32,000 bases of DNA, from positions 630,001 to 662,000 of the forward strand of contig CP066689.1 in the NCBI GenBank assembly GCA_016432445.1. The letters run 5' to 3'. The notes under the pieces are model-generated. The model did no database searches. It was not told the DNA's origin and saw only the letters and a list, made by a program, of their open reading frames with translations. Both the position numbers and the translations under genes were made by a program. Below, in pieces: positions 855-31,298 of this stretch. The DNA comes from Candidatus Saccharimonadota bacterium. GTDB lineage: Bacteria; Patescibacteriota; Microgenomatia; UBA1406; GWC2-37-13. Each line of letters starts with the position of its first letter. The first letter of the stretch is position 1.

Positions 855-1221
855 CCCTTCGTCCACGAGCTTACGCTCGGGATTTTGGAGTGGCACAGAC
901 ACAACAAAGTGGGGCTAAAATAGTCGGCAAACTATAGTCAGCAGACAACAGAATTAATTTCCGTTGACTGTTGACTGTAGACTATCGACTATATATGTAC
1001 TTTGACAATCAGGAGTAAGGTAACAATTGAAAGGTATAAAATAATACATCTTTTTTTGAATAACTAGAGAGATGGGAGAGTAATGCCAATGGTGGATGCC
1101 TTGGCAGTTTGAACCGAAGAAGGACGCGTGTTTAAGCGCGATATCAACGGTGAGTCCTTAAACAGACATTACAAGCCGTTGGTTTCCGAATGGGATAACC
1201 CCATTCCGAGCAATCGGAATG

Positions 1222-1245
1222 ATCAGGTACCGTCTGGTACCTGAT
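1222..1245 (+). repeat. GGTACC-GTCT-GGTACC hairpin copy 1 (inside 23S)
   Basis: ATCAGGTACC GTCT GGTACCTGAT, a perfect 10-bp stem. Confidence 0.8.
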
Positions 1246-1298
1246 GGGAACCCGGGGAACTGAAACATCTAAGTACCCGGAGGAATATAAATCATATG

Positions 1299-1344
1299 AT
1301 CCTTCGATTTCACTCAGGATCATCCTGAGCGAGGTCGAACGGAT
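1299..1344 (+). other. ~45-nt helical insertion in 23S domain I relative to E. coli
   Basis: It lies between the conserved AAATCA and GAGATTCC-CAGTAGCGGCGAGCGAA strings. ATCCTTCGA pairs with TCGAACGGAT, enclosing CTCAGGA-TCA-TCCTGAG. Confidence 0.6.
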
Positions 1345-1387
1345 GAGATTCCGTCAGTAGCGGCGAGCGAACGCGGAACAGTCTAAA

Positions 1388-1493
1388 TCCCTCTTCGCTT
1401 TTTACTGCGTAAAAAGCTACGATGGGACAGGCCCATTTAATATGAGACTGTGTCCCTACCGGAGATTACTACGAAGTAGTAAGCGGAGGGGGA
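1388..1493 (+). repeat. structured ~105-nt 23S insertion element, copy A
   Basis: Basal stem is TCCCTCTTCGC...GCGGAGGGGGA. Internal hairpins are TTTTTAC-TGC-GTAAAAA, GGGACA...TGTCCC and TTACTAC-GAA-GTAGTAA. It shares end sequences and architecture with 2360-2470. Confidence 0.65.
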
Positions 1494-1678
1494 GGTTGCG
1501 GGAGCTGCAATGTGTCCTTGATTTTTATAGGAGAATGTTCTGGAAAGAACAGTCATAGAAGGTGACAACCCTGTATTCGAAATAAAAATCGGGACTAGCG
1601 GATTTCCCAAGTACCACGAGGCACGGCAAACCTTGTGGGAAGCTGGGTCGGTCACGATCCAAGACTAAACATTCAAAC

Positions 1679-1719
<41 letters not shown>

Positions 1720-1777
1720 TCCCCCAGTGCGGGGAGTGAAATAGAACCTGAATCCATTGGCTAACAAACAGACAAAG

Positions 1778-1799
1778 CCAGGTACCGTCTGGTACCTGG
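1778..1799 (+). repeat. GGTACC-GTCT-GGTACC hairpin copy 2 (inside 23S, helix-25 region)
   Basis: CCAGGTACC GTCT GGTACCTGG, a perfect 9-bp stem. Confidence 0.8.
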
Positions 1800-2359
1800 T
1801 ACTGTCGTGCCTATTGAAGAATGAGTCAGCGAGTCCCCGCTTTGTGTTTGCTTAATCCATTATTTTGGAGGAGGCATAGGGAAACCAAGTGCGAAAAGCG
1901 CGTTTATACATAGCGGGGGACCCGAAACTGGGTGAGCTAACCATGAGCAGGATGAACCCCGATGAAAGTCGGGGGAAGGTCCGAACCCGTTGCAGGTGAA
2001 ATTGCATGGGACGACTTGTGGTTAGGGGTAATATGCCTATCGAACCCAGAGATAGCTGGTTCTCCCCGAAATATATTTAGGTATAGCCTCTATGATTAAA
2101 ATCCTGGGGTAGAGCTACTGGATGGTCTTGGTGCGCGTAAGCGTATCAAAATCAACCAAACTCCGAATACAGGATGTACACATAGGGAGTCAGATCTGCC
2201 CGGATAATCGGGTGTGGTCGAAAGGGAAACAACCCGGACTCTCGTCTAAGGTTCCTAAATGATTATTAAGTGGCAAAGGCCGTTTCATTTCCAATACAGC
2301 AGGGAGGTTGGCTCAGAAGCAGCCATCCTTTAAAGAGTGCGTAACAGCTCACCTGAATA

Positions 2360-2470
2360 TCCCCCTTCGCTCCTTGCTTCGCAACGGAGCTACGGTAGGG
2401 ACAAGTTCCCTTAACTTGTAAGGGATGCTTGCTCCTCCGAAGCTCTTTACGGAGTAAAGAGCGGAGGGGA
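2360..2470 (+). repeat. structured ~110-nt 23S insertion element, copy B (helix-45 region)
   Basis: It is inserted between AGCTCACCTGAATA and GATGGAGCGCCGAAAATG, where E. coli has AGCTCACTGGTCGAGTCGGCCTGCGCGGAAGATG. Basal stem is CCCCCTTCGC...GCGGAGGGG. A shared GCTACGGTAGGGACA block is present, plus a terminal hairpin GCTCTTTAC-GGA-GTAAAGAGC. Confidence 0.65.
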
Positions 2471-2713
2471 GGAGATGGAGCGCCGAAAATGATTCGGATC
2501 TAAATAATCTACCGAAGACAGAGATACTTGCCCTCTGGGCAAGTGTGGTAGGGGAGCGTTCTTACTGCAATGAAGCTCAACTGTAAGGTTGGGTGAAGTG
2601 GTAGGAAGTGAGAATGCTGACATAAGTAGTGACTCTTCCGATGAAAACTCGGAATGCCGAAAGTTCAAGGTTTCCTCAGCAACGTCAATCGACTGAGGGT
2701 TAGTCGGATCTAA

Positions 2714-2735
2714 GGGAGTACCGTCTGGTACCCCC
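2714..2735 (+). repeat. GGTACC-GTCT-GGTACC hairpin copy 3 (inside 23S)
   Basis: GGGAGTACC GTCT GGTACCCCC, with one A-C mismatch in the stem. Confidence 0.75.
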
Positions 2736-3739
2736 GATGTACAAGCAGTTAATATTCTGCTACCTAGTATTACGCGTTATTACTTTACTGATGACGAAGT
2801 TTGAATAAAGAGGCCTTCTATATGAGGGTTTAAGTTGTAAGTCTTTACCGCAAGGTTTAGGAAAGCAACGAATACGATCTGCAGTAATGCGGAGAGCTTT
2901 TGATTTTAAGTTTCCGGGAAAAATCAGTAAAGGAGTGTGATATTAGTCCGTACCGCAAACCGACACAGGTGATCTGGTCGAGAAGACCAAGGCAGACGGG
3001 TAATGGTAGTTTAAGGAACTCGGCAAAAAAGCTGAGCGTAAGCTTTGCAACATGCTCTGACCCGCTTAGCGGGTTTTCAACAAAAGTTTGTCAACCGACT
3101 GTTTAGCAAAAACTCAGGCTCCTGCAAACCTGTAAAAGGGATATATAGGAGCTGAAACCTGTCCGGTACTGGTAAGTTAATCGTTGAGGCTGAAGTATTT
3201 AAGCAATTAGATACCAGGTTTTGGCGCAAGCTCCAGTGAACGACAGCTCTAACCCTGAGAGTTCTAAGGTAGCGTAGCCCCTTGCCGGGTAAGTTCCGGC
3301 CCGCATGAAAGGTTTAACGAGTTGACAACTGTCTTGAACTACTGCCCGACGAACTTGAAATGGCTGTGAAGATGCGGCCTACCTGCACATGGACAAGAAG
3401 ACCCCGGGAGCTTTACTGAAACTTGATATTGGCGAGGAGGAATTAACTGTTGAGAGTAGGAGGGAGTAGGCCATTGGCCTACAACGATGAAACACCTCTC
3501 TTTGATTTTTTCTCACCTTACCCCGCCTTGGCGAGGGACAGTGTTAGGTGGTCAGTTTAACTGGGGCGGTTTCCTCCAAAAAGGTAACGGAGGAGCGCAA
3601 AGGTCAGCTTATTCCGGATAGAAATCGGAATGTAAGTGTAAACGCAAAAGCTGGCTTAACTGTGAGGATGACTATCCGAGCAGATGCGAAAGCAGGCGTT
3701 AGTGATCCCCCATCCCGACGTGATTTTCGGGAGGGGCTT

Positions 3740-3772
<33 letters not shown>

Positions 3773-3808
3773 GGTCTCGCCCGAGAGTTCACATCGACGG
3801 CGAGGTTC

Positions 3809-3839
<31 letters not shown>

Positions 3840-3853
3840 AGCTGAAGTAGGTT

Positions 3854-4708
<855 letters not shown>

Positions 4709-27081: not shown

Positions 27082-28431
27082 ATGAAACCGTCATTTTGCA
27101 GCTACAGCTTCGGCTGCCGCGTCAATCATGCAGAAAAAGAAGAACTGGATAGGCAGATGATCAAAGCCGGCTATAGCAATACCCCTAATCTCCCCAATAA
27201 CCCCAATCTCCCTAATACCTCTAATATTGTTATCATCAACTCATGCGCCGTAACAACCAAAGCCGAAAGAGAAGTCCGCCAACTGATTTATCAACTTAAA
27301 AGAAAAAATCCCAAACTCAAAATCGTAGTTACCGGCTGCGCCACCACTAATTGGCTAAAGTTAAACAGAAGTTTAAAAGAAGCCGATCTGTTAGTCGATA
27401 ACCAAAATAAAGAATATTTAGTCGAATTAATAGATAAGAAGTTTAGCCATTCAAAAAAAATAAATGTAGAGGACGCAGATCTGCGTCCCGTACAATCGAG
27501 TCATGATCATTATCTTCGCCAGGTACTGTCTAGTACCTGGCTTCGTTCAGGACGCGCGATTATAAAAATCCAAGACGGCTGTCAACGTTTTTGCACCTAC
27601 TGCATTGTTCCTAATTTAAGAGGCAAGCCTAAATCGAAAGCTGTCGACAATATAATAAATGAAATAAACGGACTTAATGAAAACATTAAAGAAGTGATTT
27701 TTACCGCTATAAACACTGAGGCTTTTGGCTTAGATACTGAAGAATCATTAACTGAACTTATCAATAAAACTATTAAACAAACTAAACTCAAAAGAATAAG
27801 TTTTGGATCAATCAACCCCTGGAGCTTAACTGATAATTTCTTTAAATGCTATAAGAAAAATATACAAACTGGAAGAATGGTAAAATACTTTCACGTACCA
27901 ATTCAATCAGGATCAGATAAGATCCTCAGTCTCATGAAAAGAAACTACACTAGAGAATGGCTCTCTGAAGCTCTAGATAAGCTTTGCAAGATAGATCCTT
28001 TAGTTTTCATCGGAACAGATATTATTTTGGGATTTTTAGATGAGACCTGTCGTGATTTTGAGGATACTTATAAGTTTCTTGAAGAATCTCCCATCAGTAA
28101 ATTTCATATTTTCAGGTTTTCTAAAAGAGAACATACAGCAGCTTATTACATGGCTAAAAGACTTAAAGAACCCGATACTCAAACCAAGATTAAAAGAGCT
28201 AAAGCTTTAAGTGATCTTAGCAAAAGAAAATATAATAGTTTTCTTCAAGAACATGTGAACCAAACTTTTTCATGTCTTTTATTGGAGAAAAAAATTGATG
28301 AATTCCACGAGGGACTTCTCAATAACCAAATACCTATTTTAGTTAAATCTGATAATAAAGATATCGCGGAAATAAAAAACGTTAAAATAATCAGGTATAA
28401 AAACGGCCGGTTATTTGGTAAAATAGTTTGA
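27082..28431 (+). CDS. mtaB: MiaB-like tRNA methylthiotransferase (MtaB-type radical SAM)
   Basis: An N-terminal FGCRVNHAE...INSCAVT...TGC cysteine triad and the radical SAM motif IQDGCQRFCTYCIVP. The C-terminal beta-strand region is TRAM-like. Confidence 0.85.
   Translation: MKPSFCSYSFGCRVNHAEKEELDRQMIKAGYSNTPNLPNNPNLPNTSNIVIINSCAVTTKAEREVRQLIYQLKRKNPKLKIVVTGCATTNWLKLNRSLKEADLLVDNQNKEYLVELIDKKFSHSKKINVEDADLRPVQSSHDHYLRQVLSSTWLRSGRAIIKIQDGCQRFCTYCIVPNLRGKPKSKAVDNIINEINGLNENIKEVIFTAINTEAFGLDTEESLTELINKTIKQTKLKRISFGSINPWSLTDNFFKCYKKNIQTGRMVKYFHVPIQSGSDKILSLMKRNYTREWLSEALDKLCKIDPLVFIGTDIILGFLDETCRDFEDTYKFLEESPISKFHIFRFSKREHTAAYYMAKRLKEPDTQTKIKRAKALSDLSKRKYNSFLQEHVNQTFSCLLLEKKIDEFHEGLLNNQIPILVKSDNKDIAEIKNVKIIRYKNGRLFGKIV
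27471..27488. repeat. perfect 18-nt palindrome GGACGCAGATCTGCGTCC inside mtaB
   Basis: Its reverse complement is identical to itself. It lies in a locally GC-rich stretch of an AT-rich gene. Confidence 0.85.
27518..27541 (+). repeat. hairpin copy 4: GCCAGGTACT GTCT AGTACCTGGC inside the mtaB CDS
   Basis: A 10-bp perfect stem with the same loop and flanks as 23S copy 2. It has a compensated C-G to T-A pair change. Confidence 0.8.
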
Positions 28432-28433
28432 GT

Positions 28434-28507
28434 GCGGTCGTAGCTCAACTGGTTAGAGCGTTGCCCTGTCACGGCAAAGGCTGCGGGTTCGAGCCCCGTC
28501 GATCGCG
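28434..28507 (+). tRNA. tRNA-Asp (anticodon GUC)
   Basis: GCGGTCG TA GCTC AACTGGTTA GAGC G TTGCC CTGTCAC GGCAA AGGCT GCGGG TTCGAGC CCCGT CGATCGC G. It starts 3 nt after the mtaB stop codon. Confidence 0.93.
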
Positions 28508-28525
28508 CAAAATAAATAAGTAGAT

Positions 28526-28579
28526 AGAGCGCCGCGCCCTGGCGGGGAGGTTGAGGGTTCAAGTCCCCTTGGCTCCGCA
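28526..28579 (+). pseudogene. tRNA (or tmRNA) 3'-part-like fragment: D-stem 3' strand, degenerate anticodon arm, T-arm, Ala-type acceptor strand
   Basis: AGAGCG...AGGTT GAGGG TTCAAGT CCCCT TGGCTCC GCA. No matching 5' acceptor strand lies upstream, and the anticodon stem cannot be paired. Confidence 0.4.
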
Positions 28580-28706
28580 CTAGAGTCGCTTTTCAAACGG
28601 AGTGAGAATTAGCGACTCTTGTGTCCTCCAGATATCGCTCTTCAACACGACGAGTGAATAACGGTGAGTTAAGTGTTGAAGTAAGATATGGAGGACAAGA
28701 ATATCA

Positions 28707-28727
28707 GGACCCGTAGCTCAGTTGGTT
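28707..28727 (+). pseudogene. tRNA 5'-part-like fragment (acceptor 5' strand plus D stem/loop) abutting tRNA-Val
   Basis: GGACCCG TA GCTC AGTTGGTT, followed directly by the first base of tRNA-Val. Confidence 0.4.
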
Positions 28728-28801
28728 GGACGATTAGCTCAGTTGGCTAGAGCGTCACATTGACATTGTGAAGGTCACAGGTTCAAGTCCTGTATCGTCC
28801 A
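28728..28801 (+). tRNA. tRNA-Val (anticodon GAC)
   Basis: GGACGAT TA GCTC AGTTGGCTA GAGC G TCACA TTGACAT TGTGA AGGTC ACAGG TTCAAGT CCTGT ATCGTCC A. Confidence 0.93.
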
Positions 28802-28864
28802 CAAAATTCGTTGGTTAGTTTTGAGGGAAGATGCGGAGGACGAACTCCTTAAGCCTTTTCAATC

Positions 28865-28893
28865 TTGATTTTTCTTAAATCCCCAGATATAAT
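28865..28893 (+). promoter_or_regulatory. sigma70-like promoter (TTGATT-17 nt-TATAAT) in front of the GC-rich structured region
   Basis: TTGATT at 28865-28870 and TATAAT at 28888-28893. Confidence 0.55.
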
Positions 28894-28899
28894 AACGAG

Positions 28900-29466
28900 A
28901 ATACAGAATATTAAAGTAAGATAAAAGCATATCTTATTCAGATAATCTGTTATTTTTGCACTTTTAAAACTAAAAGGCTAACTTATTGTATTTGCCCTTT
29001 TAGCGAAGAACATAGTAAGAGAAATCCTTCTCTTCTGTGATCTTCGCTACTGATGAAAATCAGTTGAAAGGGCATAAGCGGGGAGAGAAATCTCTAAGGA
29101 GGCTCAATCGAATGACTAAGCACGGGTCATCAGGTGAACGTCGCCGTCGAAGGAGGAGGAGTGACGCAATAAAAGCAACTCAATCGAGGGTTCCCGATCC
29201 TGGCAGTCGATTTGCCACTCCGGATTCTCATGATTTCAGCTTCGGCGGACACTATGGAACCAGTAGTATTCCTGATCAGTCCAGCCTTAGACGCTTCCGC
29301 TAGCTGATTCTACCCCGCATTGTGTGGATCGAAGGGAGTGCTCCCCTTCTTTCCATATATCCATATACGTGATTCACATCTAATAAGTTACCTCACAACC
29401 CAAAGCCGGAAAGTCAGTTTCTCAAGGATTTAGGACGATATTCCAATATCGTCCACCCTTTTTTTG
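28900..29466 (+). ncRNA. candidate large structured non-coding RNA of unknown family (structured core about 28994-29466)
   Basis: It is markedly GC-richer than its flanks, and its only ORF is an implausible Arg-rich 88-aa one. Many nested helices have GAAA and UUCG loops. It has an upstream promoter and a 3' hairpin plus T7. Confidence 0.55.
29434..29466 (+). terminator. hairpin GGACGATATT-CC-AATATCGTCC followed by ACCC and TTTTTTT
   Basis: A 10-bp perfect stem, with the T7 run starting 4 nt after the stem. The stem sequence equals the tRNA-Val acceptor stem. Confidence 0.5.
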
Positions 29467-29636
29467 AGTTTTTAATAACTTTTTTTACTTCCCCGGCTTT
29501 TTTTATGGTCAAAATTATTGTAATAATGCATAATTCAATATCATTATCTAGAGACTATCATCTATAGTCCGTTGACTGTTTCTAGACCCACAGCTCCGAT
29601 CTTGCTTTTAAAAAAATAATTACCTATACTATCTCC

Positions 29637-29789
29637 ATGCGTTATCCTTGGGTTTGTTTGTCAATATGTGGAATCTGGATTGCAACAGTAATCTTAGTTT
29701 CATTCCAAATAGTTGAATCTACCACCATGTTCATCTATGCTTCAGTAACTGTTTTTATTCTTTTTTTATTAGGATTTACTAGAAGCTAA
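29637..29789 (+). CDS. small hydrophobic protein (50 aa, 2 predicted TM): MRYPWVCLSICGIWIATVILVSFQIVESTTMFIYASVTVFILFLLGFTRS
   Basis: Translated by hand; it falls below the ORF-track size cutoff. It shares YPWV...W(I/F)AT...TT(M/I) with the 62-aa ORF at 31302..31490. Confidence 0.4.
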   Translation: MRYPWVCLSICGIWIATVILVSFQIVESTTMFIYASVTVFILFLLGFTRS

Positions 29790-29807: not shown

Positions 29808-31298
29808 ATGCTTCGTTTTTTTTACATTCTCTATCTACTGATAAAGTATTTTTTCTTTCTTAGCCTAGGAAAATATAAACTTAAAAAAATTAATAAACCG
29901 AAACTGTTGAGGAGTTTTTTTGAAGAAGCCAGCGGCTCTTTTATTAAGTTTGGACAATTACTCTCGATGAGAGTTGAAATGATTTCTAATGATTATTCTT
30001 TTGAATTATTAAATCTCCTCGACAATCTTAAACCTTTTTCTTACAAACTAGTAGAAAAAATATTTATTGAAGAATTAGGCGCAACTCCCAATAAAATCTT
30101 CAAGACATTTGAGAGTGAACCTTTTGCATCTGCTTCTTTTGGACAAGTGCATGGAGCTAAACTTAAAGATGGCACTGTTGTAGTTGTCAAAGTGTTAAGA
30201 CCTGGAGTTGAATCAAAAGCGAAAATTGATTTTTTGGTTGTTGATTTTCTTGCTTTTATCGCAGATCTCTTTTTCAAGATAGAAGCTTTACCTTGGAAAG
30301 AGTTTGCTAAAGAGTTTAAACAATGGACAAAGCAAGAGTTTGATTATCGGATTGAAGCTTCAAATGGTGAAAGACTTTACAATAATAATGTTAAAAATTC
30401 AAGCATTGTTATACCCAAGATCTATCATCATCTGACGACAAAAAAAATATTAGTTGAAGAATATATGGAAGGACTTCATTTAAGCCGAGTTCTTAAAAGG
30501 TTAAGAGATGGAAGGCTAGACGAAAAAAAACTAAAAAAATTAGGAATTGATTTAAAAAAAGTCCCAAGGATTCTTGTTTCTGAACTTCTTAAACAGTTTT
30601 TTATCGACGGTTTTTTTCATGCTGACCCTCACCCTGGAAATATAATTCTTCTTCAAAACGGTAAAATCGGACTTATTGATTTTGGTATCGTAGGCGGTAA
30701 AGATCCAATGCCCAATATTGATCATTTTATGAAATGGGCTAAAGCCACAGGAGATATGAACTTTGAGGATGCTGCTTTTCATGCTGCAAATTATGCTGGA
30801 GAAGACATAAAAGTAATGATAAGAAGCGCTCTGCCTGCAACTGTTGATCAAAAAGATATTGATGAGTTTACGCATTTACTGGCAGATAATTATGTACAAA
30901 CAGCTAAACATATAATCACTGACAATCTGGAAAATTTAAAGACTTTAAAAAGAGATTACATGACAGTATTTTTACAAGTTATTAAAGCAGGTAATAAATA
31001 TAATGGCAAAGTGCCAAAAGAATTTGTAATTCTAAGCAGAGGTCTCGCTGTTCTTGGTCTTATGGCAAAACTCATGGATAGCGATTTTCGCATTACAGAA
31101 GAACTGAAAAGCTTTTTTCAAACTTACCCGGAAGTAGAACTATTAAAAAATTATGTACCGCCTGCAATTAAAAGAATAAATCGGGAGGTAGCAATAGAGC
31201 GATTAACAAACTGGTTATCATCTCTCTTTGAGGTCGATCCTCAGCTTTATCATCTTGTACAAAAATATTTAAGAAAGTACAATATAGTTGAAACTTAA
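29808..31298 (+). CDS. ABC1/UbiB-family atypical protein kinase
   Basis: FIKFGQLLSMR, ASASFGQVHGAKL, VVKVLRPG, FFHADPHPGNIIL and LIDFGIVG. Confidence 0.88.
   Translation: MLRFFYILYLLIKYFFFLSLGKYKLKKINKPKLLRSFFEEASGSFIKFGQLLSMRVEMISNDYSFELLNLLDNLKPFSYKLVEKIFIEELGATPNKIFKTFESEPFASASFGQVHGAKLKDGTVVVVKVLRPGVESKAKIDFLVVDFLAFIADLFFKIEALPWKEFAKEFKQWTKQEFDYRIEASNGERLYNNNVKNSSIVIPKIYHHLTTKKILVEEYMEGLHLSRVLKRLRDGRLDEKKLKKLGIDLKKVPRILVSELLKQFFIDGFFHADPHPGNIILLQNGKIGLIDFGIVGGKDPMPNIDHFMKWAKATGDMNFEDAAFHAANYAGEDIKVMIRSALPATVDQKDIDEFTHLLADNYVQTAKHIITDNLENLKTLKRDYMTVFLQVIKAGNKYNGKVPKEFVILSRGLAVLGLMAKLMDSDFRITEELKSFFQTYPEVELLKNYVPPAIKRINREVAIERLTNWLSSLFEVDPQLYHLVQKYLRKYNIVET

Follow-up and report, generated by a model that had tools for sequence, protein, structure and literature searches.

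A GC-rich, predicted structured unit beside tRNA-Val in a CPR bacterium: a candidate lineage-restricted non-coding RNA at an unstable tRNA locus

CPR bacteria have tiny genomes in which, beyond the universal RNAs, few regulatory or structural RNAs are known. Among the large structured RNAs with which a new candidate can be compared (ROOL, GOLLD, OLE, raiA and HEARO), ROOL and GOLLD commonly adjoin tRNA genes, and single-copy candidates remain 'unnamed' in systematic surveys pending further sequences or expression data. A new large structured RNA in CPR bacteria would, if true, be worth knowing. In GC-IGR surveys of 50 bacterial genomes, the majority of long GC-rich intergenic regions proved to be ORFs that had escaped annotation, candidates that ranked low or went unnamed, or mobile or repeat sequence (PMC11109978), an outcome that sets a low prior for any true new RNA class. 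Here we describe a GC-rich unit that is so far a single-copy candidate only.

The unit occupies positions 28865-29466 of the plus strand, beside tRNA-Val, in the window, by which we mean the whole 32-kb stretch of CPR bacterial DNA that was analysed. Against ~33% GC for the window and ~0.30 for the flanks of the unit, the unit reaches 0.47-0.53 at 29000-29400, as expected from an earlier note on this DNA that had remarked on its GC-richness amid AT-rich surroundings. When GC is computed in 300-nt windows along the 32 kb, the unit attains at least 0.46, a level shared only with the 23S rRNA, the tRNA-Ala spacer and the tRNA clusters. The predicted fold of the whole transcript (-189 kcal/mol) has z = -7.9 on the plus strand, where 0 of 100 shuffles are as good, against z = -5.6 on the minus strand; likewise, the closed core (28976-29393) gives -153.4 kcal/mol and z = -6.6 on the plus strand, and -143.4 kcal/mol and z = -4.0 on the minus strand. 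Over the whole 32 kb, z below -5 in 240-nt windows is reached only by the 23S rRNA and the unit. The earlier description of a discrete, plus-strand, GC-rich segment outside the assigned RNA families is thereby supported. The only further copies retrieved, L003-L005, match the window with 100% identity.

Table 1. Features of the GC-rich unit, in window coordinates
Feature	Position	Strand	Remark
Sigma-70-type promoter-like site, TTGATT-17-TATAAT	28865..28893	+	10/12 matches to consensus
AT-rich 5'-terminal hairpin, helices of 5 + 4 + 9 bp	28903..28950	+	pair probabilities 0.94-0.98
Long-range closing helix, 5' strand UAACUUAUUG, pairs with 29381-29390	28979..28988	+	10 bp, probability 0.95
Three-way junction	28993..29074	+	pair probabilities 0.95-1.0
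Junction closing helix	28993-29001/29066-29074	+	
Junction long arm	29002-29009/29041-29048, 29011-15/29035-39, 29017-23/29028-34	+	
Junction short arm, CUGAU-GAAA-AUCAG	29050-29063	+	
Large central domain	29078..29318	+	not significantly stable overall, z = -1.46
AAGGAGG 29096-29102, 9-nt spacer, AUG 29112, 63-codon ORF to UAG 29301-29303	29096..29303	+	judged non-coding
Bulged hairpin, 8 bp + 6 bp, 7-nt loop AGUGCUC	29321..29359	+	probabilities 0.97-0.98
Long-range closing helix, 3' strand UAAUAAGUUA, pairs with 28979-28988	29381..29390	+	
Intrinsic terminator, GGACGAUAU-UCCA-AUAUCGUCC, then ACCC + U7	29433..29466	+	predicted fold

Examination of the ends of the unit reveals possible start and stop signals (Table 1). 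The upstream site had been described as a near-consensus promoter; its hexamers and spacing stand as given, and its status as a promoter is plausible rather than proven, because promoter-like hexamers are as common here as in shuffled sequence (64 sites in 20 kb against 69.9 in shuffles, with no excess), sites scoring at least 10/12 occurring about once per 2.5 kb in this AT-rich DNA. Transcription from it would start near 28900. At the other end, the hairpin of 10 bp with a run of T7 that the earlier note had placed there is present, with 9-10 bp at 29433-29454 and with ACCC before the T7, which ends at 29466. In its stem, 7 bp and the discriminator A are identical to the acceptor stem of the adjoining tRNA-Val.

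A terminator in this position could also be the regulated element of a leader or attenuator that acts in cis on the operon downstream, which codes for a small membrane protein, a UbiB-family kinase and thrS-infC-rpmI-rplT-pheST. The unit shares the strand of this operon and lies ~170 nt upstream of its conserved 50-aa ORF and the kinase gene, its terminator could be read through, and aminoacyl-tRNA synthetase genes lie downstream. However, the small ORF-kinase operon is kept in relatives without the unit, a second, separate promoter-like site (29506-29534) lies between unit and operon, no T-box or riboswitch model matches, and the predicted folds hold no alternative, antiterminator pairing for the terminator strands; furthermore, to our knowledge, known leaders are all shorter than 565 nt. 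We thus regard a leader function as very improbable.

The predicted fold between these signals begins with a 5'-terminal hairpin, which like the 10-bp helix that closes the entire core was absent from the earlier note; every robust helix is predicted with a pair probability of 0.9 or more. Inside the closing helix the first domain is a three-way junction composed of a 9-bp closing helix, a long arm of 8+5+7 bp with an AUCC loop and a short arm of 6 bp with a GAAA loop, and its predicted stability is very high (-43.7 kcal/mol, z = -8.9, 0 of 200 shuffles as good). The junction and the long-range helices had been proposed before by eye, and both are present in the computed fold at coordinates shifted by 1-2 nt, the 3' strand of the junction closing helix being 29066-29074 and not 29068-29075. 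The central domain has two closing helices, GCGGGG/CCCCGC (29078-83/29313-18, probability 1.0) and GGAGGC/GCUUCC (29098-103/29293-98, probability 0.97), its 5' half being rich in purines and its 3' half in pyrimidines. For the central region as a whole (29076-29322, 247 nt), 16 of 200 shuffles fold equally well. The 3' part of the unit (z = -4.9) includes the bulged hairpin, also noticed earlier, for which the helices are now 29321-28/29352-59 and 29331-36/29344-49. Of the UUCG tetraloop hairpin described before, the letters C(UUCG)G are found at 29240-29245, and they lie outside the minimum-energy fold. The excess of stability is therefore that of the 5' three-way junction, the 3' hairpins and the 10-bp closing helix; in the central 247 nt the structure is not significant, and for that domain the label 'highly structured' fails.

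Two further observations concern the sequence of these helices. Pairing in the helices of the junction is Watson-Crick with almost no exception, a regularity that may stem from a recent inverted duplication instead of selection, and to that extent counts against a functional RNA. The similarity between the 5' hairpin and an arm of the junction is at chance level, as is that of a repeated AAGTAAGATA motif.

The only ORF of at least 60 aa within the unit is an orphan 88-aa frame that reaches back to GUG 29037, and which the earlier note had set aside as an artefact. That note did not mention the perfect AAGGAGG, optimally spaced from the AUG of the inner 63-codon ORF. This arrangement, together with the annotation of the ORF by a gene caller on one public assembly (L005), might point to a small protein gene for a basic, arginine-rich disordered peptide, in which the three-way junction would serve as a regulatory 5' UTR, with long-range pairing that would mask the ribosome-binding site; the AAGGAGG and the AUG indeed both lie within predicted helices, as in translationally repressed mRNAs. 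Against such a gene, a word search of 5.8 billion proteins returned 0 relatives of the ORF, a full HMMER search of 1.84 billion cluster representatives returned the ORF alone, and there was no match to it in Pfam or PHROGs. In codon log-likelihood the ORF scores -20 bits where the real genes of the window score +12.7 +/- 6.7, a shortfall of 5 standard deviations, and its GC at codon positions 1/2/3 (0.52/0.64/0.43) departs from that of native genes (0.44/0.31/0.28), its third-position minimum not being of the native pattern. Moreover, an open frame of this length falls within chance expectation (p = 0.08-0.14 in shuffles). Shine-Dalgarno sequences of the GGAGG type are missing from all 23 genes of the window, which means that the AAGGAGG is not a native start signal, and a near-copy of it, UCGAAGGAGG at 29147-56, is followed by no start codon, which makes the motif part of a purine-rich tract. 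Together these observations uphold the view of the frame as an artefact and render a small protein gene improbable.

A search with all covariance models of Rfam 15 (over 1.4 kb and again over 431 nt, with lax filters) gave no match to the unit at the gathering score or at E<=10; what appeared at E<=10 was noise, namely mir-320 (24 bits, with a gathering score of 55.5), GHRLOS, MIR159 and U6atac. By these models the unit does not correspond to RNase P, tmRNA, SRP, 6S or 5S RNA or to group I/II introns, to which the earlier note, too, had been unable to match it. The comparison with ROOL and GOLLD that the earlier note had raised, run together with OLE and raiA, failed to produce a covariance-model match even at E<=10.

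It might still be supposed that the unit is a highly diverged tmRNA, RNase P RNA, SRP RNA or 6S RNA missed by the standard models, its ~420-570 nt and closing-helix architecture being comparable with those of RNase P RNA and tmRNA, and tRNA genes being its neighbours. Consistent with this, a permuted tmRNA at 28712-29188 is called by ARAGORN once the threshold is relaxed to 80%. This sub-threshold call is rejected because its T-arm is borrowed from the intact tRNA-Val; it also has A-U in place of G3-U70, and its tag, GERNL*, is reported as 'tag not identified'. At the default threshold ARAGORN, with intron-containing tRNAs also searched, finds no tmRNA. Motif inspection led to the rejection of 5S rRNA, SRP RNA and RNase P. 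For RNase P of types A and B, direct reading shows that CR-I (GGAAAGUCC) and CR-V (ACAGAA..CCGGCUUA) do not occur in the right order; 'CCGGAAAGUC' occurs once in the unit, near its 3' end (29399-29408), without a partner strand. Given that recognisable relatives would be expected of a housekeeping RNA, and that the models are silent, we find a diverged member of these families scarcely credible.

Relatives of the unit were sought in several collections. Scans of viral contigs and of metagenome contigs with the ORF and other frames as pseudo-proteins, using six back-translated patterns per scan, recovered no relative of the unit, and blastn against phages and plasmids gave no match to it. A single-sequence covariance model of the junction, run against the loci of relatives, recovered itself alone. 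Among genome contigs, a scan based on the kinase yielded only distant proteins; contigs with kinase homologues of 60-70% identity have no unit upstream, and those with MtaB homologues stop just past the gene. The 22-mer of the tRNA-Val 3' end, scanned against metagenome contigs, proved widespread in unrelated bacteria, and it led to three AT-rich possible relatives (L081, L103 and L131), 0 of which carry the unit. As none of these searches found a homologue, no helix is backed by covariation, which counts against a functional RNA.

Relatives with kinases 65-70% identical contain at the corresponding place ~200 nt upstream of the gene only, or unrelated sequence, and homology with a relative's kinase operon starts only at ~29599, leaving the unit outside the conserved block. 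In L103 (tRNA-Val identical at 74 of 74 positions) and L081 (73 of 74) a protein gene lies directly downstream of the tRNA. The relatives being distant (65-70% amino-acid identity), the absence of the unit from them is weak evidence of empty sites.

The surroundings of the unit bear marks of repeated rearrangement. A decayed copy of tRNA-Asp (28509-28582) and an orphan 5' fragment of a tRNA (28707-28727) precede it, and among relatives we observed displaced tRNA-Val 3' fragments with tandem repeats of the tRNA-Asp 3' end (L131), a GIY-YIG ORF within a tRNA (L017) and a kinase gene truncated by a serine-recombinase element (L138). With fragments of tRNAs, acceptor stems that have been replaced and insertions of endonuclease and recombinase genes, the tRNA-Asp/tRNA-Val neighbourhood of this Roizmanbacteria group turns over rapidly, a conclusion that is the more solid by-product of the analysis and against which any lineage-specific sequence at this locus has to be interpreted. 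Bare 3' halves of the same tRNA-Val sequence occur on many contigs of unrelated bacteria and are consistent with putative att sites. Within the locus itself, a 10-nt repeat of the tRNA-Val 3' end, TATCGTCCAC, is present at 28793-28802 and again at 29447-29456, the far end of the unit, a local alignment equalled in 64 of 1000 shuffles (p ~0.06). The region 29318-29360 and the terminator were also considered as decayed tRNA-Val 3' halves, an idea rejected for want of statistical support.

In light of these contextual features, the main and serious rival to a functional RNA is that the unit is a functionless remnant of inserted or mobile DNA, a foreign or rearranged piece that an integration, excision or recombination event left next to tRNA-Val, which is decaying without a role, may be transcribed, and whose hairpins would be leftover inverted repeats or terminators. 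The tRNA debris, the similar turnover in relatives, the equivalent sites without the unit and the tRNA-Val 3'-end copy all accord with this, as do an AAGGAGG-AUG foreign to a host whose genes use no Shine-Dalgarno sequence, the lack of homologues and a central domain that is not significantly structured. On the other hand, no integrase, transposase or terminal inverted repeat was found in or beside the unit, the 10-nt repeat has a chance probability of ~0.06, nothing similar was seen in the phage, plasmid and viral collections, and the GC content of the unit equals that of the rRNA and tRNA of the same genome. Random decay would furthermore hardly be expected to spare, all at once, a promoter and terminator in the right places, the 5' hairpin, the helix that closes the core and a junction of such stability. 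We consider a functionless remnant rather unlikely on balance.

The best single reading, to which we give a probability of roughly 45%, is that the unit specifies a structured non-coding RNA, restricted to this lineage and transcribed on its own, and that it came to the locus by insertion. What we take as established about the unit is its composition, its predicted fold stability, its strand preference, its start and stop signals, the lack of a coding signal, and the fact that neither the known RNA families nor the corresponding places in relatives contain it; its transcription, the formation of the fold in vivo and a function carried by the RNA itself are what we infer. The claim of a folded functional RNA made in the earlier note survives as the best reading and is unproven, there being no homologue and the central 250 nt being at chance stability. 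We propose that the unit may act as a self-contained transcription unit for a non-coding RNA of ~565 nt (~28900-29466, plus strand), which would begin with a protective 5' hairpin and finish at the intrinsic terminator. The 10-bp long-range helix would enclose the body of the RNA (28979-29390) with its three domains: the very stable three-way junction, the purine/pyrimidine-paired central domain and the bulged hairpin. Such an RNA could be stable and act through its fold, for instance as a protein-binding scaffold. It would be limited to this lineage, at a tRNA-Asp/tRNA-Val locus that appears to be a hotspot of insertion and rearrangement in this Roizmanbacteria group, and most probably it was inserted there, as opposed to being a housekeeping gene of ancient standing.

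That the unit, beyond this, founds a new class among the large structured non-coding RNAs, one of CPR/Microgenomates bacteria, is distinctly doubtful. If it did, the RNA would have ~420 nt and three domains closed by a long-range helix, with two AAGGAGG-like purine tracts in a host without Shine-Dalgarno mRNAs and, at the 3' end, a hairpin repeating the acceptor stem found in the adjoining tRNA-Val; it could then act on the anti-Shine-Dalgarno region of the ribosome or on tRNA-handling enzymes.

Several known systems invite comparison with the unit. Like the hammerhead ribozyme, its junction has CUGAUGA (29050-56) and GAAA (29066-69) around three helices. Unlike in the hammerhead, CUGAU and AUCAG pair together and the junction is fully paired, the would-be stem II lacks the G10.1-C11.1 pair, and stem I would need a 1-nt bulge beside the core. 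A hammerhead in the CUGAUGA/GAAA register, for which a U would have to bulge from stem I and stem II would consist of 2 A-U pairs, is therefore rejected, and the hammerhead models of Rfam find no match in the unit. The tmRNA is of similar size, and like the unit it is a structured RNA with a short open frame and a tRNA-acceptor-like helix at its 3' end; in the unit, however, this helix is a local hairpin where tmRNA joins its two ends, A3-U70 stands in place of the G3-U70 of tmRNA, there is no T-arm and no alanine-rich tag, and the tmRNA models are silent. With islets integrated at tRNA genes, which are marked by an att-site duplication of the tRNA 3' end, the unit shares a position immediately 3' of a tRNA, divergent composition, absence from the same site in relatives and the short tRNA 3'-end copy at its far end. 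It differs from them in spanning only ~650 bp, without an integrase or any other gene, in the shortness of its repeat and in having no related mobile element in any collection searched. ROOL, GOLLD, OLE, raiA and HEARO are each known from many covarying representatives, whereas the unit is a single one to which no Rfam 15 model of these RNAs gives a match at E<=10, and no phage context was found for it. Nevertheless, like these RNAs, it is several hundred nt long, multi-domain and GC-rich relative to its surroundings, with start and stop signals of its own and tRNA genes nearby, and its three-domain fold closed by a long-range helix resembles the architecture of functional RNAs.

The unit, a GC-rich segment between tRNA-Val and the kinase operon, has a GC content of 0.47-0.53 at 29000-29400 against about 0.30 in both flanks, bearing out the earlier note's description of it as richer in GC than its surroundings. 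In 300-nt windows across the 32 kb, values of at least 0.46 are confined to the 23S rRNA, the tRNA clusters, the tRNA-Ala spacer and the unit, and protein-coding windows never exceed 0.44. The sign of the GC skew flips in the middle of the unit, consistent with a purine-rich 5' half that pairs with a pyrimidine-rich 3' half. The promoter and terminator were both found at the positions claimed (see table). The terminator ranks among the best in 20 kb; the promoter is plausible only, because a promoter-like site as good as this one turns up roughly every 2.5 kb, and promoter-like sites overall are at least as common after shuffling. We propose, with a probability of about 0.45, that the unit is a non-coding structured RNA, restricted to its lineage and transcribed independently, which would have reached this tRNA hotspot by insertion. 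Compared with the bacterial model, the 23S rRNA elsewhere in the window (1068-3964) has inserted stretches of about 50 and 89 nt; the window lacks genes for 5S and 16S rRNA, and the rRNA genes are thus unlinked.

Features of the unit and its neighborhood (window coordinates)
Feature	Position	Remark
MtaB	27082-28431	
tRNA-Asp	28434-28508	intact
Decayed tRNA-Asp copy	28509-28582	directly 3' of intact tRNA-Asp
Two long hairpins	28578-28623 and 28622-28697	between tRNA debris
Orphan tRNA 5' fragment	28707-28727	21 nt, GGACCCGTAGCTCAGTTGGTT
tRNA-Val	28728-28802	
Unit	28865-29466	
Promoter	28865-28893	TTGATT-17-TATAAT
Terminator	29433-29454	hairpin, plus ACCC and T7
50-aa ORF	29637-29789	conserved, hydrophobic, membrane; just 5' of kinase
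UbiB-family kinase	29808-31298	then thrS-infC-rpmI-rplT-pheST

The predicted transcript (about 28900-29466, plus strand) folds at -189 kcal/mol, with z = -7.9 on the plus and -5.6 on the minus strand. In a 240-nt scan of the whole window, noisy at 12 shuffles per window, z < -5 was reached only by the 23S rRNA and the unit. Every helix paired by eye in the earlier note exists, though its coordinates are shifted by 1-2 nt, and the note's label "highly structured" suits the transcript as a whole, the three-way junction (28993-29074; -43.7 kcal/mol, z = -8.9) and the 3' part comprising the bulged hairpin and terminator (z = -4.9), but not the central domain (29076-29322; z = -1.46), which contains the ORF and most of the unit's GC and is folded equally well by 16 of 200 shuffles. 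Two elements had been missed: a 5'-terminal hairpin (28903-28950) just 3' of the inferred start, and a 10-bp long-range helix (28979-88/29381-90; pair probability 0.95) predicted to enclose the whole core as three domains. This closed core is 10 kcal/mol stabler on the plus than on the minus strand (z = -6.6 versus -4.0). Two high-probability hairpins have 7-nt loops that could pair with each other over 5 nt (AGCAC 29119-29123/GUGCU 29338-29342), a candidate kissing-loop contact that is not significant alone.

That the unit might instead be a small protein gene is suggested by a feature unnoticed earlier, an inner 63-codon ORF with a perfect AAGGAGG nine bases 5' of its AUG. However, GGAGG-type Shine-Dalgarno motifs precede none of the 23 genes (long ORFs) in the window, so the host appears not to initiate translation through them, and where the purine motif nearly recurs, 54 nt 3' of AAGGAGG, no start codon comes after it. 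The ORF scores -20 bits in codon log-likelihood, where equally long pieces of real genes score +12.7 +/- 6.7; at codon positions 1/2/3 it has a GC of 0.52/0.64/0.43 versus 0.44/0.31/0.28 in real genes, and an open frame of its length is present in 8-14% of shuffles. It has no match in Pfam or PHROGs and no homologue: searches of 5.8 billion proteins and of 1.84 billion cluster representatives returned just the same ORF, called on one same-strain assembly. Apart from the AAGGAGG-AUG, all the evidence argues against translation, in agreement with the earlier view of the ORF as an artefact, and leaves the protein gene a minor alternative.

Rfam 15, searched with 1.4 kb and with the 431-nt core, gave no match at gathering score, and relaxing the cutoff to E<=10 added only noise, in keeping with the earlier failure to place the unit in a known RNA class; a housekeeping RNA diverged from its family is a minor alternative. 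ARAGORN detected no tmRNA at its default threshold, and a permuted tmRNA called on lowering the threshold to 80% was judged to be false, its T-arm belonging to the intact tRNA-Val and its tag reading GERNL*. The junction holds the hammerhead letters CUGAUGA and GAAA, which base-pair with each other; the hammerhead register, with a stem II of two A-U pairs and a stem I bulged beside the core, was rejected.

No homologue of the unit was recovered by any search of loci, viral, metagenome, phage or plasmid sequences, including the nhmmer and blastn searches suggested earlier (134 fetched loci, 809 kb). A covariance model built from the junction retrieved only itself from the window and 20 of these loci, the phage and plasmid collections held no similar sequence, and translation of the RNA in several frames as pseudo-proteins, yielding six back-translated patterns per scan, gave no match in viral or metagenome contigs. 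Metagenome contigs picked out by the last 22 nt of tRNA-Val belonged mostly to unrelated bacteria; in two AT-rich contigs with an identical or 73/74 identical tRNA-Val, a protein gene lies directly 3'. Three independent same-strain assemblies are 100% identical to the window and hence contribute no variation. The kinase matches at 100% identity an NCBI protein assigned to Candidatus Roizmanbacteria (Microgenomates, CPR), which places the window in that group. The nearest sampled relatives are distant (kinase at most 70% identical, MtaB at most 59%); contigs of the MtaB relatives end just past MtaB, and the kinase genes of relatives have other genes upstream, with spacers of about 200 nt. In one relative (L139), homology with the window begins only at about 29599 (70% nucleotide identity over 29599-29789), which places the unit outside the conserved block and indicates that the 50-aa ORF is a real, conserved gene, probably encoding a small membrane protein as part of the kinase operon. 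A leader of this operon is a further minor reading of the unit.

The neighborhood of the unit is unstable, and relatives display the same kind of turnover. The decayed tRNA-Asp spans the D-arm 3' strand to the 3' end without the 5' acceptor strand, and aligns better to the tRNA-Asp of a relative (L131) than to the adjoining intact gene; the orphan 5' fragment directly adjoins the first base of tRNA-Val. The spacer encompassing both (28509-28727, 219 nt) has a fold z of -4.4. A partial copy of one spacer-hairpin arm is seen at 28817-28841 (80% identity over 25 nt). In L131 (1254-1480 and 2695-3030), tRNA-Val is intact with a replaced acceptor stem (GACTGCT/AGCAGTC), and 3' of it lie a displaced 3' fragment bearing the acceptor found in the window (ATCGTCCA) and a third piece; behind the tRNA-Asp of L131, the final 20 nt of that gene recur as three tandem copies, plus a 64-nt spacer. 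In L017 (5275-5647), a tRNA-Glu-like gene downstream of MtaB has its T-arm interrupted by a small GIY-YIG endonuclease-like ORF and precedes an intact tRNA-Asp, and in L138 (1-7141) the kinase is N-terminally truncated (371 aa) by an inserted element carrying a large serine recombinase, a Replic_Relax protein and an HTH protein.

Seven base pairs plus the discriminator of the unit's terminator hairpin are identical to the tRNA-Val acceptor stem, so that the two ends of a 654-bp interval share a 10-nt direct repeat; this repeat is suggestive only, because an equally good local match occurs in 6% of shuffles. Further tRNA-like pieces inside the unit were not significant. Many of the metagenome contigs L018-L137, from unrelated bacteria of higher GC, carry only the 3' half of the same tRNA-Val preceded by non-tRNA DNA, which would fit elements integrated into tRNA-Val, with these halves as att sites. 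The main rival, less likely in our estimate, takes the unit for a remnant of inserted DNA that has no function.

For the structured RNA that we favor, a comparison is provided by systematic GC-IGR surveys covering 50 bacterial genomes, in which most of 4714 long GC-rich intergenic regions proved to be unannotated ORFs, low-ranking or unnamed candidates, or mobile or repeat sequence, and candidates with very few representatives usually remain unnamed (PMC11109978). This base rate is sobering for the reading of the unit as a new RNA, which for now belongs in the 'unnamed' category of those surveys.
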